A stretch of DNA of 63,901 nucleotides, counting the filler. It is 9 parts of 9 records of this genome, joined end to end, with 100 filler letters (N's around TTAATTAATTAA, not from the genome) between each part and the next. Parts side by side here need not be neighbours in the genome. Positions count along the whole stretch, not along the records: positions 52,961 to 58,518 come from SRR31156797_83397; 8 more parts are not named here. The stretch is one strand, 5' to 3'. Below, in pieces: positions 5,871-58,518 of the stretch. The translations under genes and the position numbers were made by a program. Position 1 is the first letter of the stretch. Every line of letters begins with the position of its first letter. A model generated the notes under the pieces. The model was not told where the DNA came from and made no database searches. It saw only the letters and a program-made list of their open reading frames with translations.

Positions 5871-8132
5871 TCACGGGGTGTTCGCTTGAGCTAGCGCCGG
5901 CGCAGACGCCTCGGACACCACAACCTTGTCCCAGCCGACAACCCGATAGCGCCGGCCGGTGAATTTGCCGGTTCGCTCGACGCGGCCTGTGCCATTCTGC
6001 CACGAGAGAACTGCCTTGGTGAAGTGCCCCTTTTCGAAATCAAGGCTCACGCCGTCGTCTTCAAACAGGGTAAACGATGCCGGCTTGTCGCCGTACACAC
6101 GTGCCGTGATTTCGAAGACGGTATCGTCTGCGACAAACTCCACCGGCCTGGCTACGGGCAGAATCGTGTTCTCCTTGACAAAGATGGGGACTTGACCCGC
6201 CGACGCCTTGACGCGGTACACGGCCCCTCCGGCATAGCGGACATTCGTGTAGAAATCGATCCAGTCGTTGCCAGCCGGCAGGTGGAGTTCGCGCGAATCG
6301 GCGCTGCCCAGGATGGGTGCGACCAGAATGGCATCGCCGAAGCAATAGGCATCCTCAATGGTGCGCACCCGGGCATCTTCGGGAAACTCAATCGGCAGCG
6401 CCCGTGTCGGAGGCAGACCTTCGTAGCGATAGCGATAGAACGCCGAATAGAAGTAGGGCAACAGGCTCATCCTCAGATTCACCAGTTCGCGCACCTTGGC
6501 GACCACGATTTCCTGCTCGGCTTCAGGCAAGAGGATGTTCTGCTTGTTCTTGGCCTTGTCGAACTGCGCCCAGATCGGGTTCGGCACAAACCACGGATTC
6601 AGGCAGGTCTGTGGTGCGAAGACCGCCATACCGATGCGGCTGAGCAAGTCTTCGAGATTGGGGGCCTCGCGCACTTCCGGCGACCAGAGCAGACCCGCGT
6701 AGGAGGCGTTGAGAAGTTGGCGCAGATACTCGCTCTGCGTGTAGGCGTCACTGTAGAGATTGAACGGCAAGGGCGCCGCCAGTGAGGCCGTCGCACGCAC
6801 ATCGCCCCACGTGCGCATGTTGTGCTGCTTGAATACCGAGTAGATGCTGCGCTGGTAGAGGTATCCGTACAGTTGCGTCATCTGCTCGCCGTCGATGCCC
6901 GAGGGGAAGGTCGAGCAATAGGGATAATTGAACGGGGTGCTGTCGGCGATCGGCTGGCGGTCGCACTCATCGGCCTTGAAGCCGGAAATACCCTTCTGGA
7001 CGAGTTCGACATCATGATATCGGGCGAACACGTCGAAGGCTTCGGGGTCGGCAAAGTCTACGACGAGCCCGCCCCAGACGAGAAAGTCACCGGATCGCTC
7101 CTTCAGCGGATCGAAGAGCGGCGACGTGGGATGAATGTAGGCATGCTCCCACAGATTGAGATGGTACCCCATGCCTTGGAGCCGGTCGACGAATTCCTGG
7201 TGCTTCGGGAACCGGTCGTCCGACCAGACCAGCGAGCACGAATAGGCGTGGGTCTGCCAGCCGGGCTCCAGGCCGATCACATCGCACGGGACATGCTGGC
7301 GGCGCAGCGTCTCGGCCACGTCCATCACCGTCTCATGCGTCCCGGCTGTATAGGTGCGATACTTCAATCCCAGTCCCCACATCGGTGGCACACAGCCACC
7401 ACCCGAGAACAAGTTGTAGCGCTGGACCGCCTCTCGCAATGTCGGACCACCAAAGAGGTAGACGTCCACACCGGGCGCCCCGGGAATATCGAACACCACC
7501 TCGGGCCGACCGGCGGCCTGCTGGGCGGCATACAGGCCGGACACCGATGTCTTCAGATCGCTCCCGTCGGCAGACGGCGAGCGAACCACGGCGGCCTTGG
7601 GCGTCAGGCGGGCCACATGCACGTAGGGAACACGCGCCGTATCGACCCACACCCCATAGCCTTTCGTACTGACGTAGAACGGGACCGGACCATGGCTGGC
7701 CCCGGTCTTGGCGATGACCCCGGCGCAAACAGTCAGTCGCTTGCGGTAGCCCTTCTGACGATAGGCACGTGGGTCGAGGCCGAATCCATAGATCTCGTCT
7801 TCGGGTTCATCGCAGGGAACGTAGACGACCAGTCGGCCCGATAGCCGTTGACAACGGATCGCATCGGTGCCAAAGGGCAACTCTCCCGGTGCGGACAGCC
7901 CATTGATCTCCGCCGTCATCGGTTCGCGTTCGCGAAAAGCGGTGGGGACGAAACGCTCGGGCGTCCCAAAACGGATGCGCCACACGCCGCGGGCCACCTG
8001 CGACACCTGGCCCGGCAAGGGACCGCGACCGCCCTGTGCCCCATTCGACAGTCCCATGAAAACAGATACAACGAATCCGCACACCGCCACACACCAGCTC
8101 AGGCGGCAACCACACCGTTCGGTACGATACAT
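5871..8132 (-). CDS. Glycoside hydrolase family 31
   Basis: PPMWGLG, DVIGLEPGW, GFKADECD nucleophile, LRMSLLPYFY, ILVAP, FEDDG. Confidence 0.88.
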   Translation of the reverse strand: MYRTERCGCRLSWCVAVCGFVVSVFMGLSNGAQGGRGPLPGQVSQVARGVWRIRFGTPERFVPTAFREREPMTAEINGLSAPGELPFGTDAIRCQRLSGRLVVYVPCDEPEDEIYGFGLDPRAYRQKGYRKRLTVCAGVIAKTGASHGPVPFYVSTKGYGVWVDTARVPYVHVARLTPKAAVVRSPSADGSDLKTSVSGLYAAQQAAGRPEVVFDIPGAPGVDVYLFGGPTLREAVQRYNLFSGGGCVPPMWGLGLKYRTYTAGTHETVMDVAETLRRQHVPCDVIGLEPGWQTHAYSCSLVWSDDRFPKHQEFVDRLQGMGYHLNLWEHAYIHPTSPLFDPLKERSGDFLVWGGLVVDFADPEAFDVFARYHDVELVQKGISGFKADECDRQPIADSTPFNYPYCSTFPSGIDGEQMTQLYGYLYQRSIYSVFKQHNMRTWGDVRATASLAAPLPFNLYSDAYTQSEYLRQLLNASYAGLLWSPEVREAPNLEDLLSRIGMAVFAPQTCLNPWFVPNPIWAQFDKAKNKQNILLPEAEQEIVVAKVRELVNLRMSLLPYFYSAFYRYRYEGLPPTRALPIEFPEDARVRTIEDAYCFGDAILVAPILGSADSRELHLPAGNDWIDFYTNVRYAGGAVYRVKASAGQVPIFVKENTILPVARPVEFVADDTVFEITARVYGDKPASFTLFEDDGVSLDFEKGHFTKAVLSWQNGTGRVERTGKFTGRRYRVVGWDKVVVSEASAPALAQANTP

Positions 8133-8417: not shown

Positions 8418-8517
8418 NNNNNNNNNNNNNNNNNNNNNNNNNNNNNNNNNNNNNNNNNNNNTTAATTAATTAANNNNNNNNNNNNNNNNNNNNNNNNNNN
8501 NNNNNNNNNNNNNNNNN
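8418..8517. other. Artificial contig linker; identical linkers at 15352-15451, 21864-21963, 31523-31622, 36879-36978, 42239-42338, 52861-52960, 58519-58618
   Basis: N44-TTAATTAATTAA-N44 (stops in all six frames); genes are truncated and composition changes across each linker. Confidence 0.98.
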
Positions 8518-14021: not shown

Positions 14022-15351
14022 TCAGGGTGCCGACGAGCCCCCCTTGATGATCAGGCCGTCGTCGCCGGCCGAAACCGTGATGGCTTCGCCGTCCTTGACC
14101 GCGCCTTCCAGGATCAGCCCGGCCAGCGGGTTCTGCAGATATTGCTGGATGACGCGCTTTAGCGGCCGGGCCCCGTAGGCCGGATCGTAGCCCTTGTCGG
14201 CCAGCCAGGATTTGGCCGCTTCGTCCAGCTCCATCTCCATGTGCCGGTCGCCCAACAGTTTGCCAAGCCGGCCCAGTTGGATATCGACAATCCCGTCCAT
14301 GTGATCGCGGCTGAGGCGGTGGAACAGGATGACCTCGTCCAGCCGGTTCAGGAATTCCGGCCGGAAGGCGCCCCGCACCACGTCCATGACTTGGTCGCGG
14401 ACGGCGTCCGAATCCTGCCCGGTCGGCTGGTTGGCCAGCACGTCGCTGCCCAGGTTCGAGGTCAGGATGATCAGGGTATTACGGAAATCGACCGTTCTTC
14501 CCTGCCCGTCGGTCAGGCGGCCGTCGTCCAGAACCTGCAAGAGCACGTTGAAGACGTCCGGATGGGCCTTTTCGACCTCGTCGAACAGAATCACCTGGTA
14601 TGGCCGACGCCTGACGGCTTCGGTCAGCGCGCCGCCTTCGTCGTAACCGACGTAACCCGGCGGCGCCCCGATGAGGCGCGCGACGGCGTGCTTTTCCATG
14701 TATTCCGACATGTCGATGCGGACCATCGCAGTCTCGTCGTCGAACAGGAATTCGGCCAGCGCCTTGGTCAGTTCGGTCTTACCGACACCGGTCGGGCCCA
14801 GGAACAGGAAACTGCCGATCGGGCGGCCGGCGTCTTGCAAACCGGCACGGGCCCGGCGCACGGCGTTCGATACGGCCGTCAGCGCTTCGTCCTGGCCGAT
14901 GACACGGCGGCCGATGTTTTCCTCCATACGCAACAACTTGTCACGTTCGCCTTCCAGCATCTTGTCGACCGGCACGCCGGTCCAACGCGACACCACCGAT
15001 GCGATATGTTCCGGCGTCACCGCCTCTTCCAGCATGCGGTGGCTTTCGGCGCCTTCGGCCTTGGCGATTTTCGCTTCCAGCTTCGGGATCAGGTCGTATT
15101 GCAATTCGCCGACCTTCTCCAGCGAACCCTCGCGCATCGCCTTTTCCACCGCAATACGGGCCTGATCCAATTCCTCCTTCAGGCGGGTCGATCCGGCCAG
15201 GGCCTGCTTTTCGCTTTCCCATTCGGCGGTCAGCGATCCGGCCTTTTTCTCGAAACCGGTCAGTTCCTTCTCCAGTTTCTTGAGGCGTTCTTTCGAGGCC
15301 TCGTCGGGTTCCTTCTTCAGGGCCTCGCGCTCGATCTTCAGCTGGATGATG
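14022..15351 (-). CDS. clpB: Chaperone ClpB, C-terminal part
   Basis: M-domain coiled coil; [36 protein letters not shown]. Confidence 0.96.
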
Positions 15352-48972: not shown

Positions 48973-49367
48973 AACAAATCCTTATGCCGGTAAATCCCGT
49001 GAATTTTTCTTCGCCAGATTGACAGTTTGGAAGTCACGCATCCGTACCCGTCAAGCGTATGGAGAAAACGCCGTCCCAGAACCACGCCGATATGGTTTGG
49101 AACCTCAGATCCGTTCCGGATCAAAACAATGTCGTTAAGCCTTGCCTTTTCAAAGGGTATCCCGGCAAATTCATTGCAGACATTTTCCGCCAGATAATTT
49201 GCCCGACTTACGCCCTCAGGCCCTGTGAACTCGTGTTTATAATCAAGTAAATCTATTTGCAGCTCGGTTTTGTAAAACAGAACGACCAGGCCGTAGCAGT
49301 CGCACCCCTGCCACGACCGGCCGTCCCATTCATACGGCGTCTCTATGTATTTTCTGATATTAAGCAC
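48969..49367 (-). CDS. Tail assembly NlpC/P60 protein (gpK-like)
   Basis: PY.WDGR..GCDCYGLV, NHIGV, FLH. Confidence 0.9.
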   Translation of the reverse strand: MLNIRKYIETPYEWDGRSWQGCDCYGLVVLFYKTELQIDLLDYKHEFTGPEGVSRANYLAENVCNEFAGIPFEKARLNDIVLIRNGSEVPNHIGVVLGRRFLHTLDGYGCVTSKLSIWRRKIHGIYRHKDLL

Positions 49368-50332: not shown

Positions 50333-52816
50333 TTACCGGGCATAAGTCCTTATGGTTTTGTTTATTGTTCCGTTTGCGCTTATATCGCTGGCCACGGCGT
50401 CAATAATCGTTTTTCTCAATGCCGGCAGAGCCCTTTCAACCCCGGCCTGGTCGCCGCCATTGATGGCCACGTGCATGTTGACATTCGTTCCGCCGCCCTT
50501 GCCCAGGTATTCCTTCAGGTCCCGGTTAGTGTCGGCGTCAACGACCCGTTCGCCCTTGTCCAAAAGCCATGTGCCTTCCCTCGGAATATCGGTGATGCCG
50601 CCATGGGCCATGCCGCCCAATATAGAGCCTAGTGTAAACGACCCCATAATTGCCGCGCCTTTAAGGGCCGCAATTGCCTTCATCCCATGATTTCCGTGGT
50701 CATCAATTAGGGTCATTATACCGTGATAAGCTGCTCTCATAAGGAATTCGACCGTTTTGGCCGCGGCCATTATTTTTAATTCCAGGCTAAGTTTTTCTAT
50801 TAGTTTTGAAAAATCAAATTCACCGGTTGTGAAATAATCGCTTATAGCACCTGTAAGTACGCTAGATATTGTTCCAGTAAATCCCTGGACAATTTCACCG
50901 TATACACCTATTTCTTCCTGGGATTTTGCCATTTCGGCAGTGTGCTCAGCTTGTCTCTTTTTCGCCCCTTGAAGCTTATCAATGGCGTCGCCAAGTTCTG
51001 GATTCATCGCGATTAAGTCGGCAAATTGTGTTTTCAGGTTTTCAGCTTCCCTGGCATTTATTTTCAGTTGCTTATCCAAGTCGCTCAACCCGCTTATATC
51101 GATATCAAACTCAATATCGTCAATTTCCTTTTTGAAGTCTTTGACTTTATTTTTAGATTCTTCGAGTTGATTTAATTGGACTTGAGCATCTCTAAACGCC
51201 CACAATTGGTCGATAGCAGTTGAGATCTCCGGACGAACAGCAATATATTTCTGCATCTCCTCTTTTGATCTAGCTGCCTCACGTTTATTTCTTTCTTTTG
51301 CAGACAAACCAATTAAGCTGTTTTCAAACTTTATATCTGAAATTTGTTGCTGTAATTGTTTTAATTTATTGGCCGCTCCTTCCGCGATGTCCTCCCCACT
51401 TGTTCCTGAGAACTTTTTGCCAGATACTTTTTTGCCAGGGCCTGTCAACTTGTCTTCAATGTTCTTTATTACTCCATCGATCACACCCGCAGCATTACCA
51501 GCCCCTTTACTATTTGCTTCTTTTTTCAAATCGCTTAAAAGTGCCAGCAGTTTCTTGATGCTTTCACTGTCTTCGCTGCCGGAACCACTTATTAAGGCAG
51601 CTTGTTGCTTTTTCAAGTCTTCAAGTTCCTTCTCTTGCTCAGTTACTCTATCCTTGGCGGCTTTAGATTCTTTTTCTAAATTTTTTGCTGCTTTGTTGAA
51701 ACCATCGATTAAAGGCGTTAACGCCGCTTCCACAGCGCCTTTCCCCCACCAGTCGTTATTATTGAATGCCTCGACAATACTAGTTAACCATTTGCTAATC
51801 CATTTAGCCAGGTCAATAAAAGTTCCTGTTACACGAGTAGAGATGTCGGTCAAAAATTTATTAAGCTCATAAATAGCCTTCTTGTATCCGATCTCAATAT
51901 CAATTTTAATAATATCCAGTGCACTCCAAGCATCCTTTGTTTGCGCAAAAAATGTTATTGCCGTCCGAAAGAATCCAAGGACTTTATTTATGGCCTTGAA
52001 CATTGCATCTGAAAGTGTACCGGCCCAATCTTTAAGCGTTCCGTCCTCTCTATAAGTCTTAAGCAGCCCAAGAACATCCGATATTTTTTTCTTTATTGCT
52101 CCCCAAAGACCTCCTGAATCCACTACATCTAAACGAAATAGCATCCACTGGTCTTTCAACATTCCCACCATGCTCCCCCAATCCTGGGCCAGCATTACCG
52201 TTGAATCCTTGAATTTACGATTGGGATCTTCAAACATGGCCAATAGGATTTGCCTCGTTTCCTCGGCCGAATATTCGACTTCTGACTTGAAGCCAAGCAT
52301 GGAATAGGCGCCATTCTGCTTGAATTTTTCCGCCGAATTCGCGCCGGCGGTATACATGTTGATAATTTCACCGGTTGCGTCTTCTATGGACATATTTGTG
52401 GCCGCGGCAATATCAGCTATGTGGGGCATATACTGCTTGACTTCGGCAACGCCGCCCTTCATGACCGCGGACAAAGCTGTGGCCGAATTCATGACTTTTT
52501 CAAATTCAAAAGGCACCGAGGCGGCGAATTCGGCCATTTCCTGGAACATTCTGCTGCCTTCTTGAGTTGATCCAAGCAGAATATTTAAGGTCGTTTTATA
52601 TTTGTCAGCGATAATTGCTGCTTCCACAAATGGTGCGGTAACAAATGACGCTGCTTTACCCAACGTGCCCAAGCCCGATCCTAAACGGCTAATATTTTCT
52701 TTTAAGCCGGCGGCTTTTTCTTTAACCTTGTCGAACTTCTTAGTAATATTATCCAGCTTCTTGTTAAAATCCGGCAGATTAAAATTAAACGGTATACTCG
52801 AGGATCCTACCGCCAT
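50333..52816 (-). CDS. Tape measure protein
   Basis: FAASVPF tape-measure domain, long helical body, GMAHGGI..IP.EGTWLLDKGERV. Confidence 0.9.
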   Translation of the reverse strand: MAVGSSSIPFNFNLPDFNKKLDNITKKFDKVKEKAAGLKENISRLGSGLGTLGKAASFVTAPFVEAAIIADKYKTTLNILLGSTQEGSRMFQEMAEFAASVPFEFEKVMNSATALSAVMKGGVAEVKQYMPHIADIAAATNMSIEDATGEIINMYTAGANSAEKFKQNGAYSMLGFKSEVEYSAEETRQILLAMFEDPNRKFKDSTVMLAQDWGSMVGMLKDQWMLFRLDVVDSGGLWGAIKKKISDVLGLLKTYREDGTLKDWAGTLSDAMFKAINKVLGFFRTAITFFAQTKDAWSALDIIKIDIEIGYKKAIYELNKFLTDISTRVTGTFIDLAKWISKWLTSIVEAFNNNDWWGKGAVEAALTPLIDGFNKAAKNLEKESKAAKDRVTEQEKELEDLKKQQAALISGSGSEDSESIKKLLALLSDLKKEANSKGAGNAAGVIDGVIKNIEDKLTGPGKKVSGKKFSGTSGEDIAEGAANKLKQLQQQISDIKFENSLIGLSAKERNKREAARSKEEMQKYIAVRPEISTAIDQLWAFRDAQVQLNQLEESKNKVKDFKKEIDDIEFDIDISGLSDLDKQLKINAREAENLKTQFADLIAMNPELGDAIDKLQGAKKRQAEHTAEMAKSQEEIGVYGEIVQGFTGTISSVLTGAISDYFTTGEFDFSKLIEKLSLELKIMAAAKTVEFLMRAAYHGIMTLIDDHGNHGMKAIAALKGAAIMGSFTLGSILGGMAHGGITDIPREGTWLLDKGERVVDADTNRDLKEYLGKGGGTNVNMHVAINGGDQAGVERALPALRKTIIDAVASDISANGTINKTIRTYAR

Positions 52817-52960: not shown

Positions 52961-53271
52961 GTGACCAAGAAGGCTACATGGACTGCAACCATGAGTACCA
53001 CACGTTTGTACAAGAAAAAGCTGGAAATCCTGTGTTGAGCAGGGTGGTCTCAAACCTACGTGACGTGATCTTGCTGCACCGCTATCGCCAAATATACCGT
53101 CCAGGTAGATTTGCAGAGTCAATGGAAGAGCATCGAAGGCTCATCGAGGCGTTTCGAGCTCGTGACGGTGAGCGCGCAGAACGACTCATGCGGGCTCATT
53201 TACAAAAACAGGGTCAGGCGCTCGTTTCTTATTACGCAGAGTTAGGTTTCCAAAAGGTTCAGGACAATTAA
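52961..53271 (+). CDS. GntR family regulator, C-terminal FCD domain
   Basis: N.EYH, AGNPVL, EEH..LIEA...RD...AE..MR.HL. Confidence 0.85.
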
Positions 53272-53336
53272 TGCCTGGAAAAACCACATAACTGAAATAA
53301 GGGCGAATGTCCGGTAGGTGAAAGTGTCCTGAAGGT

Positions 53337-54158
53337 TTAAAAGGGCAAATCATCAAAGTTATCACTTTCACATATACCTTTCTTTTCTTTGATATCAAGT
53401 TGATTTTCGGCAATCAGGTTCATGTATTCATAGACCAACTTTTTGCTGACCTTGGTGACAAAGGCGGTGTCTTCAGGTGTTAAGCCTTTATGCAGGCAAG
53501 CCAGGATTCGTTTATAGTCTTTCACATAACGGGTAATGGCTTCCGGAGAATGATTGGTTTCCCGAGCTGTTTGTTCCACAGATTTACCTTCGACAATGAC
53601 TTTGTAGCAGATCTGTTTTTTATGGGTAATGGAACGGCCCATGTCATGGATTGTGCCTCTGCGAGGAACGAGGGTTTGATGGTCTTTTTCCCATTGCCTG
53701 ACATAGTTCGAGATTGTTGCCGGGCTTAACCGCATCATGGTGGCAACATCAACGCCGTTGAGAACGGCGTTTTGTTCCTTGGCTTGCGTAAAGAGACCTA
53801 CGGCTGCCCGTTGGCGAATGGTTTTTGCTTTTTCTCCTTCGAGATAAGCCTGGATGTCCTCCGGGGCAATCATATCGACAAAGACAGGTTTGAGTCGGGT
53901 CTTTTCGATGGTTTTACCATATGCGGCTTTTTCGTTTTCGTCCACGGCTGGCCACATTACCTGGCCCATCCTCAGGTGGGTGTTGGGCGGATAGAATTGT
54001 TCGACCAATTCCTGGATTTCATTGACGATCACCTGCCGGGTCAGATAGCCGCCCAGTTGCGGGCACTGGTCTTGAAAAAACAATGATAAAGCAGATGCGA
54101 ACGTTTTTTTCTGCAAGGGGCCGAATTGATCGGCAAGCGATGTTTTGCCTGATTTCAT
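53337..54158 (-). CDS. DUF1670-like protein B (intact, 273 aa)
   Basis: GQVMW.AV, VP.RG...D.G...THK, HS....RY; AGGAGG RBS. Confidence 0.85.
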   Translation of the reverse strand: MKSGKTSLADQFGPLQKKTFASALSLFFQDQCPQLGGYLTRQVIVNEIQELVEQFYPPNTHLRMGQVMWPAVDENEKAAYGKTIEKTRLKPVFVDMIAPEDIQAYLEGEKAKTIRQRAAVGLFTQAKEQNAVLNGVDVATMMRLSPATISNYVRQWEKDHQTLVPRRGTIHDMGRSITHKKQICYKVIVEGKSVEQTARETNHSPEAITRYVKDYKRILACLHKGLTPEDTAFVTKVSKKLVYEYMNLIAENQLDIKEKKGICESDNFDDLPF

Positions 54159-55014
54159 GTCGTCCTCCTTTTGGTCGGCCCATGGTTTTTTTAAAATCAA
54201 CGGATTTGTAATAGATCCGTCCACGGGCCTCTATCTCATCGATGCGTTGTCGATATGCCGGATTTTCACAGGCATCAGCATGCAGTCCAAGATAGGTATT
54301 GACCGTGGCCACGGAGACACCGACCACCAAAGCAGTTTTCAGGTTGTTGCGGAATTTGCGCTGGCAATAAACCACTCTGCAAAAAGTATCAATGTAGCGT
54401 TCGACAGCGGTCAACGAATGTTTGATGGCTCTGGCGATTTCAACGGGCTCCTTTTCGGCCAGATACAGGGTAACGGCCTGGACCCGATGGGTTACGCCCG
54501 GTCCGATATCTTTTTGCTGTCCCCGGGTGGGTACACAGATGTTTTGTCTGCGAAGCCTTTGGATATCTCTACGGATCGTCCTTACGTCGGTATCCAGAAT
54601 AACGGCCAGATCTTCCTATGTTAACACAGCGCCCTGATCTTTGGCTTCCACGGTCATCCGCAGGATCTGCTGGCGGCGCTTGTCCGATGGGCCATAGGAT
54701 CTTCGTACCTCGGCATCTTCTAAAGGGTCTATATGGGTAATGACAATCCTTTTGAATTGACAGTGTTTCAGCGGTTTGCCGGCAGGTTCTGAAATGTCGA
54801 CTGCCGTCCAGCCCATCTGTCCGGGGTGGAGCACATTCCCCTCCGCATGGTCGCCAATGGCAAAGACTTCTTTGGCTTTTTCAACGATAATGTCAGACTC
54901 GAAAGGGGAGCAGTTGGTACCATCAGTGATGAGATTGGCAAACATCCGCTCCAATGTTTTAATATCGAGCCGGGCCTCTTGTAACTGTTTTTGGTGAGCA
55001 TAGGTCGGCATCAT
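54019..55014 (-). pseudogene. DUF1670-like protein A with internal TAG at 54616-54618
   Basis: GAVLT*EDLA, frame continues through VPTRGQQKDIGPGVTHR and HSLTAVERY. Confidence 0.8.
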
Positions 55015-55211
55015 AGGCGCAGTATCCTTTCCGAGCAGGCTTGATCTTCTTTCCTTTCTATATCGGCAACACAGGGAAAGAAAATCCAGGATTTTCGCCT
55101 ACCCGACATACGCCCTAATCGGAACATCTATAGGTTTCTAAATCATGGTATTAAACCTTAGATTTTCCAACGGTGCAGATGAACAATAATCTAATTAGCA
55201 AAGGAGGAAAA

Positions 55212-56231
55212 ATGGAATCGAGAAAGCTTTTTGGAATTGGACTAGTTCTTTTTTTTACGATGGGTGTTTTTTTTGTAAGTCCTGGTTCTTTATTAGCCCG
55301 GACACTTACACTAAAAGTTTCTCATCAATTTGCTGCTGGCGATGTACGTGACAACATGGCACGTGTGTTCGGAGACATGGTTTCGGAAAAAACCAATGGG
55401 CAGATCAAATTCAGATACTATCCAGCTAGCTCCCTTTACAAGGCGAAAGAGCAGTGGGATGTTATGCGTAAGGGCGGTCTGGATATGTCGGTTTTTCCTC
55501 TTGACTATGCGTCGGGAAAGGTTCCGCAGTTGTCAATCACCTTGATGCCCTGTTCTGTTGCTAGTATTCAGCAGGGATTGACGTGGAGAGACAAACCTAT
55601 TGGTAAGAAAGTCGAAGGTCTGATGGAACAACATGGTGTGAAAAACCTGGTATGGGCCTGGTTCGACGGCGGAATCGGCAGCAAAATCAAACAGATCAAG
55701 TTGCCCGAAGATGTCAAGGGCACCAAGATGCGCGCAGCCGGAAAAAAATATGAATACATGATGAAAGAAGCCGGCGCCTCTATTACTAGCATGCCGTCGT
55801 CAGAGACTTACCATGCGCTAGCCACAGGTGTTCTGGATACCATGATGACATCTTCAGCCTCTTTCGTTTCCTATCGTCTACACGAAGTTCTCAAGCATAT
55901 CAATGTTCCCCGTGATTATTCTATATGGTTCATGGCAGAGAATCTAGTCATTTCCCAAAAGACCTGGGACCGGTTGACCCCGGAACAACAGAAGATTTTT
56001 TTGGAAGTGGCTGAATGGATGCACGAGAACTGGGTCTACCAGAACTTCAAACACCTGGTCGAAAATCTGGTCGATTCCTACACAAAAGCAAATGTAGACA
56101 TTCACTACATGAACAAGGACGAATTCGATCAATGGCTGTCATTTGCGCAGCAGACTTCCTGGAAACAGTACGCTGAAACGGTTGAGGGCGGCCAGGAACT
56201 CCTGGACCTCGCTCTGGATGCCCTGAAATGA
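55212..56231 (+). CDS. dctP: TRAP transporter substrate-binding protein
   Basis: Signal peptide; PEDVKGTKMR, E.Y.AL.TGVLD. Confidence 0.92.
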   Translation: MESRKLFGIGLVLFFTMGVFFVSPGSLLARTLTLKVSHQFAAGDVRDNMARVFGDMVSEKTNGQIKFRYYPASSLYKAKEQWDVMRKGGLDMSVFPLDYASGKVPQLSITLMPCSVASIQQGLTWRDKPIGKKVEGLMEQHGVKNLVWAWFDGGIGSKIKQIKLPEDVKGTKMRAAGKKYEYMMKEAGASITSMPSSETYHALATGVLDTMMTSSASFVSYRLHEVLKHINVPRDYSIWFMAENLVISQKTWDRLTPEQQKIFLEVAEWMHENWVYQNFKHLVENLVDSYTKANVDIHYMNKDEFDQWLSFAQQTSWKQYAETVEGGQELLDLALDALK

Positions 56232-56387
56232 TTCGCATCACCGGGGGGTGAAGGCGGTGGTCAAAGCTTTGCTGCCGCCGTCACTCCAGGACCTCTTGCG
56301 GTGATCCGGCATGCCGGTAAACAAATCCTTAATTCGCCATCAGGATACGAACACCTGTAAGGTAATCACCATTTATGGGAAAAGACA

Positions 56388-56999
56388 ATGAAAAAAGCTT
56401 TGCGCATAGCGGTATGGATCATTGACGGACTGACCAACATTTCAGGTTGGATCGCGGCGCTGTGCCTGGTTGCGGCTGCGTTAATCGTAACTGAGGCCGT
56501 CATCGTTCGTAAGGTGTGGGGTATTTCCACGATCTGGCAAATCGAGGCATCCGTTTTTTTATTAATGTTTACAGTGTTTGTGGGTGCTCCCTTTGTTCAG
56601 AAAAATGAACATCATCTGAATGTCGATCTTGTAATCATCCACCTGCCACCCCGGACACGGGAGATTACTTTGATCGTCGTTTCGATACTGTCTTGCTTGC
56701 TGGCAATGCTGGTTGCTTGGTATGCTTGGCCGATGTGGTGGGATACCGTTTTGAATAATGAGCATTCCGAATCGCTCTGGGGTCCACCTTTATGGATACC
56801 TTTTTTATTTCTTCCCCTGGGAATGAGCCTGCTATTTCTACAGTACATCGTATATATTTATAAAAAAATTAACGCACTAAAAAAAGGCGAAATTGAAACC
56901 GACGTGGTGCCGGCTGAGCTTGCGGATATCGAACGACCAGATGCTATGGACGATGCAACCCGTCGAAGAACAGCCAGCAAGGAGATCGAAAATGAATGA
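56388..56999 (+). CDS. dctQ: TRAP transporter small permease
   Basis: Four TMs, W..E, HLNVDL. Confidence 0.9.
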   Translation: MKKALRIAVWIIDGLTNISGWIAALCLVAAALIVTEAVIVRKVWGISTIWQIEASVFLLMFTVFVGAPFVQKNEHHLNVDLVIIHLPPRTREITLIVVSILSCLLAMLVAWYAWPMWWDTVLNNEHSESLWGPPLWIPFLFLPLGMSLLFLQYIVYIYKKINALKKGEIETDVVPAELADIERPDAMDDATRRRTASKEIENE

Positions 57000-58335
57000 A
57001 TATGTGCTTGCCTTATTATTGTTTGTAAGTGCATTCGGGCTGCTTATATCGGGCATTCCTATTTGGGCCGGGCTTGCAGGAATATCCGTTTTATTTATCT
57101 TGATCTTTTCGCCCCACTTGCTGGCCTCACTACCGTACGTACTCCACGGTAGCATGGACAGTTTTGCGCTATTGGCAATTCCGCTCTTCATTCTTCTCAG
57201 CGCACCCATTGCCGCGTCCGGTGCCAGCAAAGATCTTTACGAAACACTGCATAAGTGGCTTCATAAAATTCCAGGAGGATTGGGTATCGCCAATATGGTG
57301 GGATGCGGTATCTTCGCCGCTTTATGCGGTTCAAGCCCTGCAACGGCAGCCGCAATTGGAGGCATCGGTATTCCGGAGATGCGCCGAAGAGGTTACTCGC
57401 CGGCGTTGGCGACGGGCTTGATCGCGCATGCCGGAACCTTCGGCATCCTAATTCCGCCCAGTGTGACTATGATCCTGTATGGTGTCGCCACCGAAACCTC
57501 TATCGGAAAATGCTTCATTGCCGGTGTGATACCAGGAATCATATTGGTACTGCTCAGCTGTATTTGGGTTGGATTAGTATTTTTTTACCGTAAATTCGTT
57601 CCGGCCAAGCAAGGATCAATGTATTACATCGATGCCAAACATCAAACTAAGGCAGAAGTTATTCGGTGGGCTGATCGGTTTTATTCTCTAGTAAAAGTTT
57701 TGCCGTTTGTTTTGATTATTATTGGAATCATGGGCTCATTGTACGGTGGATGGGCAACGCCCAGTGAAGCCGGCGGTCTCGGAGCGGTGCTTTCGCTAAT
57801 TTTCGTCATTGGCATCTACCGGGTGTACAAGCCGAAACGCCTATGGGACATTTTCGTCAAAGCACTCAGCGAGAGCAGCATGATTCTAATGATCATGGCC
57901 GCAGCACTTGTTTTTGCCTGGGTCTCATCGGATCTGTATGCCACACAGGCTTTGGGCGAACTTATTTTGAAGCTCCCTTTGGGTAAATGGGGAATCATTT
58001 TTCTCATTAATATTTTACTGCTGATCCTGGGCTGCTTTATTCCACCTGCAGCCGTAATTTTGATGGTCGCCCCACTACTGCTTCCGATCATCCAGGGCTT
58101 GGGCTTCGACCCGATCTGGTTCGCTGTTATTATGACTGTCAACCTGGAAATCGGGCTGGTGACACCTCCTGTTGGCCTCAATCTGTATGTAGTTAAGAAT
58201 ATTGCTCCAGACATTCCTATGTCACATGTTCTGTTGGGGGTAACCCCGTTCATTATAATCGACTGCTTAGTCATCGTACTTCTTTGTCTATTTCCGGAAA
58301 TGGCGTTATGGTTGCCGAATAAAATGATTGGTTAA
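56992..58335 (+). CDS. dctM: TRAP transporter large permease
   Basis: LLAIPLF, GSSPATAA, GILIPPS, VTPPVGLNL. Confidence 0.94.
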   Translation: MNEYVLALLLFVSAFGLLISGIPIWAGLAGISVLFILIFSPHLLASLPYVLHGSMDSFALLAIPLFILLSAPIAASGASKDLYETLHKWLHKIPGGLGIANMVGCGIFAALCGSSPATAAAIGGIGIPEMRRRGYSPALATGLIAHAGTFGILIPPSVTMILYGVATETSIGKCFIAGVIPGIILVLLSCIWVGLVFFYRKFVPAKQGSMYYIDAKHQTKAEVIRWADRFYSLVKVLPFVLIIIGIMGSLYGGWATPSEAGGLGAVLSLIFVIGIYRVYKPKRLWDIFVKALSESSMILMIMAAALVFAWVSSDLYATQALGELILKLPLGKWGIIFLINILLLILGCFIPPAAVILMVAPLLLPIIQGLGFDPIWFAVIMTVNLEIGLVTPPVGLNLYVVKNIAPDIPMSHVLLGVTPFIIIDCLVIVLLCLFPEMALWLPNKMIG

Positions 58336-58337
58336 CT

Positions 58338-58518
58338 ATGGAGGAATCGATGCACCAGAAATCTATCAATGCTTGGATTGAGTATATTTGTTCGAAAAGG
58401 GGTGATAAAAAAGCCATTACGTTCCTGCGTGATGGTATAACTGAAACGGAACTTACATATTCTGAACTCAAAAGAGATGTTTCCCTTTTCGCCGATACAC
58501 TCAAAGACCAAGGGATTT
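58338..58518 (+). CDS. AMP-binding (acyl-CoA synthetase-like) enzyme, N-terminal part
   Basis: K.AI.F....LTYSEL...GI at the contig edge. Confidence 0.6.

Follow-up and report, generated by a model that had tools for sequence, protein, structure and literature searches.

A stretch of 63,901 nucleotides of DNA (hereafter the window) contains, on the contig SRR31156797_83397, an 1826-bp unit (window 53297–55122) whose only genes encode two paralogous DUF1670 proteins, OrfA and OrfB. This unit is a real, mobile insertion sequence (IS). It has defined ends, recurs in different contexts, can be compared with an empty version of the site that it fills, and carries DUF1670 genes only. We favor, with a probability of roughly one in two, the interpretation that the DUF1670 pair is itself the recombinase, that a joined-end form of the element recombines with look-alike targets at a TT core, and that the unit in the window is a defective copy of such an IS. 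The initial annotation, made from the sequence alone, had put the unit forward as a candidate new mobile family; the unit is indeed a mobile element, the DUF1670 pair accounts for its only genes, and we have not found the family described.

Mobility and distribution of the element

Sequencing run X2, which comes from another study, has contigs over both flanks of the element at high depth but zero depth over window 53333–55006. Two X2 contig ends span the site as ..CACATAACTG-C-ACATCTATAGG.., with 53294 joined to 55124/5, and the X2 contig picks up again at 55124/55125. The empty site (..AACTG-CA-CATCT..) comes from a related strain, in which the flanks diverge by a few per cent, and relative to it the net length gain at the window site is the element plus 2 nt. 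The initial annotation had predicted an empty site reading ..GAAA-TAA-TCGG..; the real one is without TAA.

Further copies lie in other contexts. Run X1, possibly the source sample and hence not independent, yielded two contigs in which other flanks are joined to the element at 53294/53295. A metagenome-assembled genome (MAG), G002, holds four copies that are 98.998–99.577% identical to one another and have unrelated flanks, which are themselves repeats. The best relative, an intact copy on the complete chromosome of Desulfosarcina variabilis (L001 5034–6858), is 83% identical over the whole unit and 89% in orfB. Among the matches listed, the longest contig is 3 kb or less (mostly 1.8–2.2 kb) for 109 of 120 orfB homologues, and most metagenome loci are equally short, which is the signature of collapsed multicopy repeats.

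Relatives form 1295 representative clusters (50% identity) at E ≤ 1e-3, 730 at E ≤ 1e-10 and 145 at E ≤ 1e-30. A relative is encoded in 518 stretches of JGI metagenome contigs and in 89 stretches of species-representative genomes; the latter span, by record title, many bacterial phyla and several archaeal orders, including methanogens and anaerobic methanotrophic (ANME) archaea. A tblastn search of a plasmid collection with orfB gave no match.

A search of 25 relatives of Desulfobulbus rhabdoformis (G077) and 25 of Desulfoprunum benzoelyticum (G078) yielded no usable empty site, the flanks being too diverged. In Pontiella sulfatireligans (L017 4978–8357) a DUF1670 element lies 28 nt inside the end of another IS, of which a related genome (G051) has about eight copies. 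This site was tried as an empty-site test and rejected; the close relative G043 is without the entire 3380-bp block, and hence there is no clean junction.

Ends of the element

The two arms of the inverted repeat (Table 1) are identical at 20 of 23 positions. No pair of such quality with a span of 1500–2200 nt arose in 20 shuffles of the 5.6-kb contig, which bears out the 23-bp inverted repeats of the initial annotation. Beyond the repeats, which are subterminal, lie 4 conserved bases at one end and 7 at the other. An alignment of the D. variabilis copy with the window copy continues 6 bases past the repeat at one end and 9 bases past it at the other, the outer bases are likewise kept in eight more close copies, and the four G002 copies begin and terminate exactly at them. 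Copies in other bacterial phyla, and those in ANME-1, ANME-2 and Methanothrix archaea, have a looser version of the end sequence. In gene orientation, the consensus left end is TT-CCGATTA-GGGCR.. and the consensus right end is ..YGCCC-TTAT-TT.

Two features of the initial annotation have to be revised on these grounds. The unit is not 1815 bp bounded by the repeats; it extends beyond them at both ends. The flanking TAA, read as a target duplication, is conserved (as TAA/TTA) at the termini of copies from many phyla and is therefore element sequence. The initial annotation had also named outcomes that would count against a mobile family, and here the data went the other way: an empty site (X2) and further copies (X1, G002) exist, the ends are conserved across other tandem DUF1670 loci, and in the material examined no IS with a DDE gene shares the same terminal inverted repeats.

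Short solo end fragments are also present in G002. One of them (L147; G002:C9, ~14713–14762), a 50-nt left-end fragment, lies inside an apparent, partly missing IS4/IS5-type transposase gene. A ~38-nt palindrome, consisting of two left-end boxes face to face, stands alone at several sites (L169–L173, in Pontiella and relatives; L017 5006–5046) and is found, too, as the outer part of the Pontiella-subfamily left end; it could represent a miniature derivative, a footprint or a favored target.

Flanking TT and target preference

We searched 161 orfB-matching loci with patterns that allowed any dinucleotide just outside each end. Ends were recognized in 67 (left) and 82 (right) of these loci, the others being cut off by contig ends or too divergent. 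In gene orientation, the dinucleotide outside the end is TT at 67/67 left ends and 82/82 right ends, and never AA. All 51 loci with both ends recognized have TT on both sides.

The D. variabilis site reads CAAA-TT[element]TT-TGA and the uninterrupted relative G058 reads CAAA-TT-TGA; uninterrupted paralogues of two G002 right flanks likewise have TT at the join. Over five uninterrupted comparisons, all with diverged sequences, the first T is present in 5/5 and TT in 3/5. From these comparisons we conclude that the target has a single TT and that the insert comes to have one on each side.

Beyond the TT, the flanks vary among near-identical copies and are therefore target sequence. They are biased: in 63 left and 78 right unique flanks (overall composition A 30%, T 34%), A occupies position −2 in 84% (C and G 0%), and T occupies −1 in 68% and +5 in 76%. 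The biased bases are those of the element's own joined ends (..TTAT-TT-CCGAT..), giving a target preference A-T-[TT]-N4-T.

At the homologue of the D. variabilis site in L159 (G058:C116, ~7174–7312) there is a different insert of ~135 nt, bracketed by an 11-nt direct repeat, which may represent a further small mobile element that uses this AT-rich spot.

Two paralogous DUF1670 genes

Two overlapping open reading frames (ORFs), co-oriented on the minus strand, occupy the unit. Both match Pfam DUF1670 (PF07900; gathering threshold 25 bits), orfA with E 6.8e-46 and 156.8 bits (read through with X) and orfB with E 2e-53 and 181.5 bits, and their products are paralogous (31% identity over 194 aa, E 6e-20). 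The by-eye DUF1670 assignment of the initial annotation and its account of two homologous ORFs filling the unit are thereby confirmed, as is its remark that no DDE, HUH or serine-recombinase gene could be seen: Pfam and NCBIfam place no such family above threshold in either ORF. Besides DUF1670, Pfam gives weak matches to helix-turn-helix (HTH) families only. Of the NCBIfam transposase models transpos_IS630 comes closest, with 18.4 bits where the cut-off is 100, and covers residues 137–168, the HTH segment alone.

The window copy is defective. An in-frame TAG interrupts its orfA at a codon that is CAG (Gln) in D. variabilis, and a homopolymer run near the end of the gene has lost 1 nt; orfA is therefore a pseudogene, as the initial annotation had implied. 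In D. variabilis, orfA (286 aa) ends in a stop codon that overlaps the orfB start in the sequence ATGA. In the five genomes searched, orfA lies upstream of orfB in every full copy. The full copies examined contain DUF1670 genes only, with no second conserved gene inside any of them.

In two called proteins, P0188 (450 aa) and P0165 (400 aa), a DUF1670 part is attached to a UvrD-helicase part or a DnaG-type zinc ribbon; these chimeras are probably gene calls that run from an interrupted host gene into an inserted element.

Table 1. Features of the element and its immediate flanks, in window coordinates.
Feature	Position	Strand	Description
Right flanking dinucleotide	53295–53296	.	AA on the + strand, TT in gene orientation; target or crossover dinucleotide
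Right end (RE)	53297–53323	−	Outer TTAT 53297–53300 (gene orientation) and 23-nt inverted repeat 53301–53323
orfB	53337–54158	−	273 aa, intact, DUF1670; own ATG preceded by GGAGG
orfA	54155–55014	−	DUF1670 pseudogene; in-frame TAG 54616–54618; frameshift at homopolymer run
Slippery homopolymer run	54186–54192	−	A7, one base short of the A8 in the closest intact copies (L001, L004, L005)
Untranslated leader, left end to orfA	55015–55092	−	Imperfect hairpin, arms 55040–55054 and 55075–55089
Left end (LE)	55093–55122	−	23-nt inverted repeat 55093–55115 and outer CCGATTA 55116–55122 (gene orientation)
Left flanking dinucleotide	55123–55124	.	AA on the + strand, TT in gene orientation

A slippery run and a predicted OrfAB fusion

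A homopolymeric run (at least seven A, or at least three A with at least four G) lies within 80 nt upstream of the orfB ATG in 119/119 loci; the background elsewhere in the elements is 27 such runs in 89,250 nt. In 109 of these loci orfB is in frame −1 with respect to the long ORF before it; it forms an in-frame fusion in 2 and is in the third frame in 8, the class into which its A7 run puts the window copy. A canonical X XXY YYZ heptamer in the orfA frame is present at 73 of the 109 frame −1 loci (A AAA AAG in 39, A AAA AAA in 22, A AAA AAC in 8, A AAA AAT in 4), and at the remaining 36 transcriptional slippage may take its place.

Fusions also occur naturally. Single polypeptides comprise two DUF1670 units (532 and 544 aa) or three (~940 aa), without any other domain, and in two G002 copies a change in run length has fused orfA and orfB into one 579-aa frame. 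From the run, the −1 frame of orfB and these natural fusions, an OrfAB fusion is predicted; the layout implies that OrfA, OrfB and a putative OrfAB would be produced, as in IS1 and IS3.

Copies in G002 that are ~99% identical (L015/L087 and L023/L092 versus L016/L084) differ in run length or nearby, and these differences resemble an on/off or fused/unfused switch. At window 54193 a Logan contig of run X1 has T where the window has A (T3A8 versus T4A7 on the minus strand), which shifts the run boundary but leaves the run length as it is; the difference may reflect another copy in the sample.

The suggestion in the initial annotation that the two proteins may form a heterodimer is backed by the natural double and triple DUF1670 fusions and by the conserved frameshift site joining orfA to orfB. 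A structure prediction of the OrfA–OrfB complex scored 0.50, compared with 0.14 for the best control; contacts agreed by at least 56% between runs, and the predicted local distance difference test (pLDDT) value of the partner was at least 67. A score of 0.50 was reached by 51/78 solved complexes and 2/108 mismatched pairs, and scores of 0.60 or under take in 5/78 solved complexes and all 4 passing mismatches (of 180). The prediction lends weak support to OrfA–OrfB pairing.

Predicted fold and conserved residues

The AlphaFold2 model of OrfB (88 sequences; pLDDT 89.8, predicted template-modeling score 0.77) has three N-terminal helices, a β-hairpin (66–73/89–95) and then helices arranged as two or three HTH-like modules. 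At the available sensitivity the model bears no likeness to DDE, HUH, serine or tyrosine enzymes, which does not amount to proof of a new fold. A PDB profile search with OrfA gave nothing below E 0.09. Among named ESM Atlas clusters without PF07900 the best score was 0.81, with HTH-only clusters.

In 97 OrfA/OrfB pairs, 20 positions are conserved in both paralogues. They include K18, Q66, K82 (in the hairpin turn) and D101 outside the HTH modules, and R121, R167, D172, H179, H203, S204, R210, Y211 and Y245 within or between the modules. The broad OrfB alignment of 88 sequences has only two invariant residues, H179 and Y211, and no invariant serine. Judged by their conservation, these residues look like an active site. 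R, K, H and an invariant Y are conserved in both paralogues; their order differs from the R-K-H-R-H/W-Y or R-K-R-H-Y of tyrosine recombinases and type IB topoisomerases, and no integrase or topoisomerase chain matched in the fold searches. Sources name DUF1670 proteins 'CsgD family regulator' or 'predicted transcriptional regulator', and NCBI uses 'DUF1670 domain-containing protein'.

Proposed mechanism and alternatives

We propose that OrfA and OrfB would be made separately and that −1 ribosomal frameshifting or transcriptional slippage at the run before orfB would add an OrfA–OrfB fusion. The multi-HTH DUF1670 proteins would bind the conserved end boxes and act as the recombinase themselves. 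The element would exit as a joined-end form, circular or synapsed (..TTAT-TT-CCGATTA..), which would recombine in one fixed orientation with junction-like targets (A-T-TT-N4-T), and strand exchange at the 2-nt TT core would leave TT on both sides. The window copy would now be movable only with proteins of other copies in the same population. A broader claim, for which we would offer slightly less than even odds, is that DUF1670 adds a sixth type of transposase to the known DDE, DEDD, HUH, serine and tyrosine enzymes: all-helical and multi-HTH, working as a hetero-oligomer or fusion, exchanging strands at a TT core with an active site of Y211 (OrfB)/Y207 (OrfA) and His/Arg/Lys residues, and spread unrecognized through Bacteria and Archaea.

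Several observations weigh against this proposal. The X2 empty site has two bases between the flanks, as expected, but they are TG in gene orientation, and a G002 left-flank paralogue has TA at the join. Right and left ends joined through TT (RE-TT-LE) occur only in L227 and L237, as the native compound left end of one subfamily, and no circular or joined-end form was seen among the sequences of the four runs compared, which are assembled contigs and cannot show circles. The left and right flanks of a given G002 copy are non-contiguous in the paralogues, leaving no clean before/after pair there. D. variabilis has a single copy, as do 4/5 further cultured or long-contig genomes checked, which speaks against high activity. 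On the protein side, a Foldseek search of the model against the PDB gave no match at E ≤ 1e-3 and no catalytic fold, and every fold match is to a DNA-binding domain. The sole PDB profile match, 8vd6 (E 2.4e-7), is a designed HTH-like repeat protein, and the match reflects the HTH-like repeats in residues 183–243. The invariant residues may read DNA rather than form an active site, because the end boxes, too, are conserved across phyla and domains of life.

These last points would also suit a division of labor in which the DUF1670 proteins only recognize the ends and regulate, and in which an enzyme encoded elsewhere (a host recombinase or topoisomerase, or the product of an unlinked mobile-element gene) does the chemistry. 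Elements that exploit host Xer recombinases provide a comparison. An all-helical model with two or three HTH modules, fold matches that are all DNA-binding and the regulator names given by the sources agree with such a role, and the invariant residues could simply track invariant end boxes. We nevertheless consider this arrangement, the main alternative, less likely than a DUF1670 recombinase. Across many bacterial phyla and archaeal orders the DUF1670 pair is the sole constant cargo, no second conserved gene lies within any copy, and the helper would need to be nearly universal; a frameshift-fusion layout is typical of transposases, not of regulators; and K18, Q66, K82 and D101 are conserved in both paralogues although they lie outside the HTH modules.

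Less probable still is a DUF1670 transposase that acts by cut-and-paste or copy-out with a staggered 2-bp cut, so that TT is a true target-site duplication and an asymmetric OrfA/OrfB complex sets the orientation. Uninterrupted sites do have a single TT and filled sites have one on either side of the insert, the gain at the window site is the element plus 2 nt, and two paralogues acting on two unequal ends could supply the asymmetry. A symmetric staggered cutter should, however, yield AA as often as TT, and none of the 67 left and 82 right ends has AA. The target bias at −2, −1 and +5 copies the element's own joined ends, as expected of recombination between like sites and not of staggered cutting, and neither an RNase-H-like nor another nuclease fold was found. 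We rank junction-by-target recombination over a 2-bp duplication because AA flanks do not occur and because the target copies the element's own junction.

It is very improbable that the unit derives, as a passenger or in non-autonomous form, from a known DDE IS with the same ends: the window copy is itself defective and G002 has short solo end fragments, but no transposase family reaches its cut-off (the 18.4 bits for IS630, against 100, come from the HTH segment), full copies hold DUF1670 genes alone, and whole-locus searches of G002 found the ends only on DUF1670 copies and short remnants.

Comparison with known insertion-sequence families

By analogy, the element appears most like IS607 and IS110/IS1111 in insertion logic and most like IS1 and IS3 in expression logic; Pfam and NCBIfam find in it none of the protein domains that define these families.

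IS607 has a serine recombinase with an N-terminal HTH and no DDE domain, and the same dinucleotide (GG) at its junctions and target. The DUF1670 element similarly has an identical dinucleotide at both junctions and in the target, its insertion fits a joined-end form and a loosely defined target, and its protein has an N-terminal HTH and no DDE domain. Unlike IS607, it is without a detected resolvase-type serine catalytic domain, its core is TT rather than GG, and it has clear inverted repeats, two paralogous genes and a frameshift site.

The IS110/IS1111 elements use DEDD 'bridge' recombinases and insert in an orientation-specific manner at a 2-nt core, and the repeats of IS1111 are subterminal. 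The DUF1670 element shares a 2-nt core common to junction and target, orientation-specific insertion and, with IS1111, subterminal repeats. It differs in that Pfam and NCBIfam detect neither the DEDD (RuvC-like) nor the Tnp domain and no structured RNA was found; its target resembles its own junction and, as far as is visible, would be recognized by proteins.

IS1 and IS3 produce OrfA, OrfB and a frameshifted OrfAB transposase, and their flanking repeats are 3–4 or 8–9 nt and variable. Likenesses to them are the two overlapping ORFs, the −1 frame of orfB, the A-rich slippery heptamer (A AAA AAG and others) and the natural fusions. In contrast, OrfB of the DUF1670 element is a paralogue of OrfA and not a DDE (rve-type) protein, and the flanking repeat is 2 nt and invariant.

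IS630/Tc1-mariner elements encode a DDE/D transposase and duplicate a TA target on both sides. The DUF1670 element is of similar size and is also flanked on both sides by an invariant dinucleotide, but its TT is non-palindromic and occurs in one orientation, its ends are unequal and it has no DDE/D domain. PIF/Harbinger elements and the IS5 group make 3-bp TAA/TTA duplications, and the initial annotation drew an analogy to them from the GGGC with which the inverted repeats begin and the adjoining TAA. The analogy falls because the duplication on which it rested does not exist: TAA lies inside the element and is missing at the empty site. No DDE_Tnp_4-like domain is present.

The locus and the make-up of the window

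The window consists of separate contigs chained at 8418–58618 by eight pairs of 44-N runs (44 N, 12 bases, 44 N). The contig that carries the element occupies window 52961–58518 only (5.6 kb), and neighbors across the spacers are not linked to the locus. Flank annotation places the end of a GntR-type FCD-domain gene on one side of the element and a dctP-dctQ-dctM tripartite ATP-independent periplasmic (TRAP) transporter operon on the other, the neighbors that the initial annotation had named. At this locus a dead IS copy thus sits between a regulator gene and a TRAP operon, and the insertion is missing in a related strain.

An Rfam search of window 52961–55400 (E ≤ 1) gave no match. A scan for promoters and terminators found 2 promoter-like sites against 2.5 expected, that is, at background. 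End-like matches in the window number 3, against 0.38 expected, and 2/100 shuffles reached 3; the match at window 49202–49218, on another contig, is taken as chance. The neighboring contig encodes, at 50333–52816 on the minus strand, an 827-aa ORF that by eye resembles a phage tail tape-measure protein.

Significance

Insertion sequences are classified by the enzyme that mobilizes them, and the known enzyme classes are few. We found no paper that mentions DUF1670, PF07900 or IPR012871, with the limit that an earlier entry under another name (for example in ISfinder or in supplements) is possible, and a broader literature search for a comparable IS family returned nothing relevant. The digIS paper mentions a catalytic-domain model built for ISDol1, a member of the ISNCY orphan group.

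The family is widespread and appears to be undescribed, and its transposase, if this is the DUF1670 pair, belongs to no known class. It is found from sulfate reducers to ANME archaea, and with its proteins annotated as regulators or as DUF1670 proteins, genome annotation at present misses its insertions. Should the DUF1670 pair be the recombinase, the element would be a compact DNA inserter that works by protein alone, in a specific orientation and with a new fold; otherwise, a widespread element would depend on a universal helper yet to be named.

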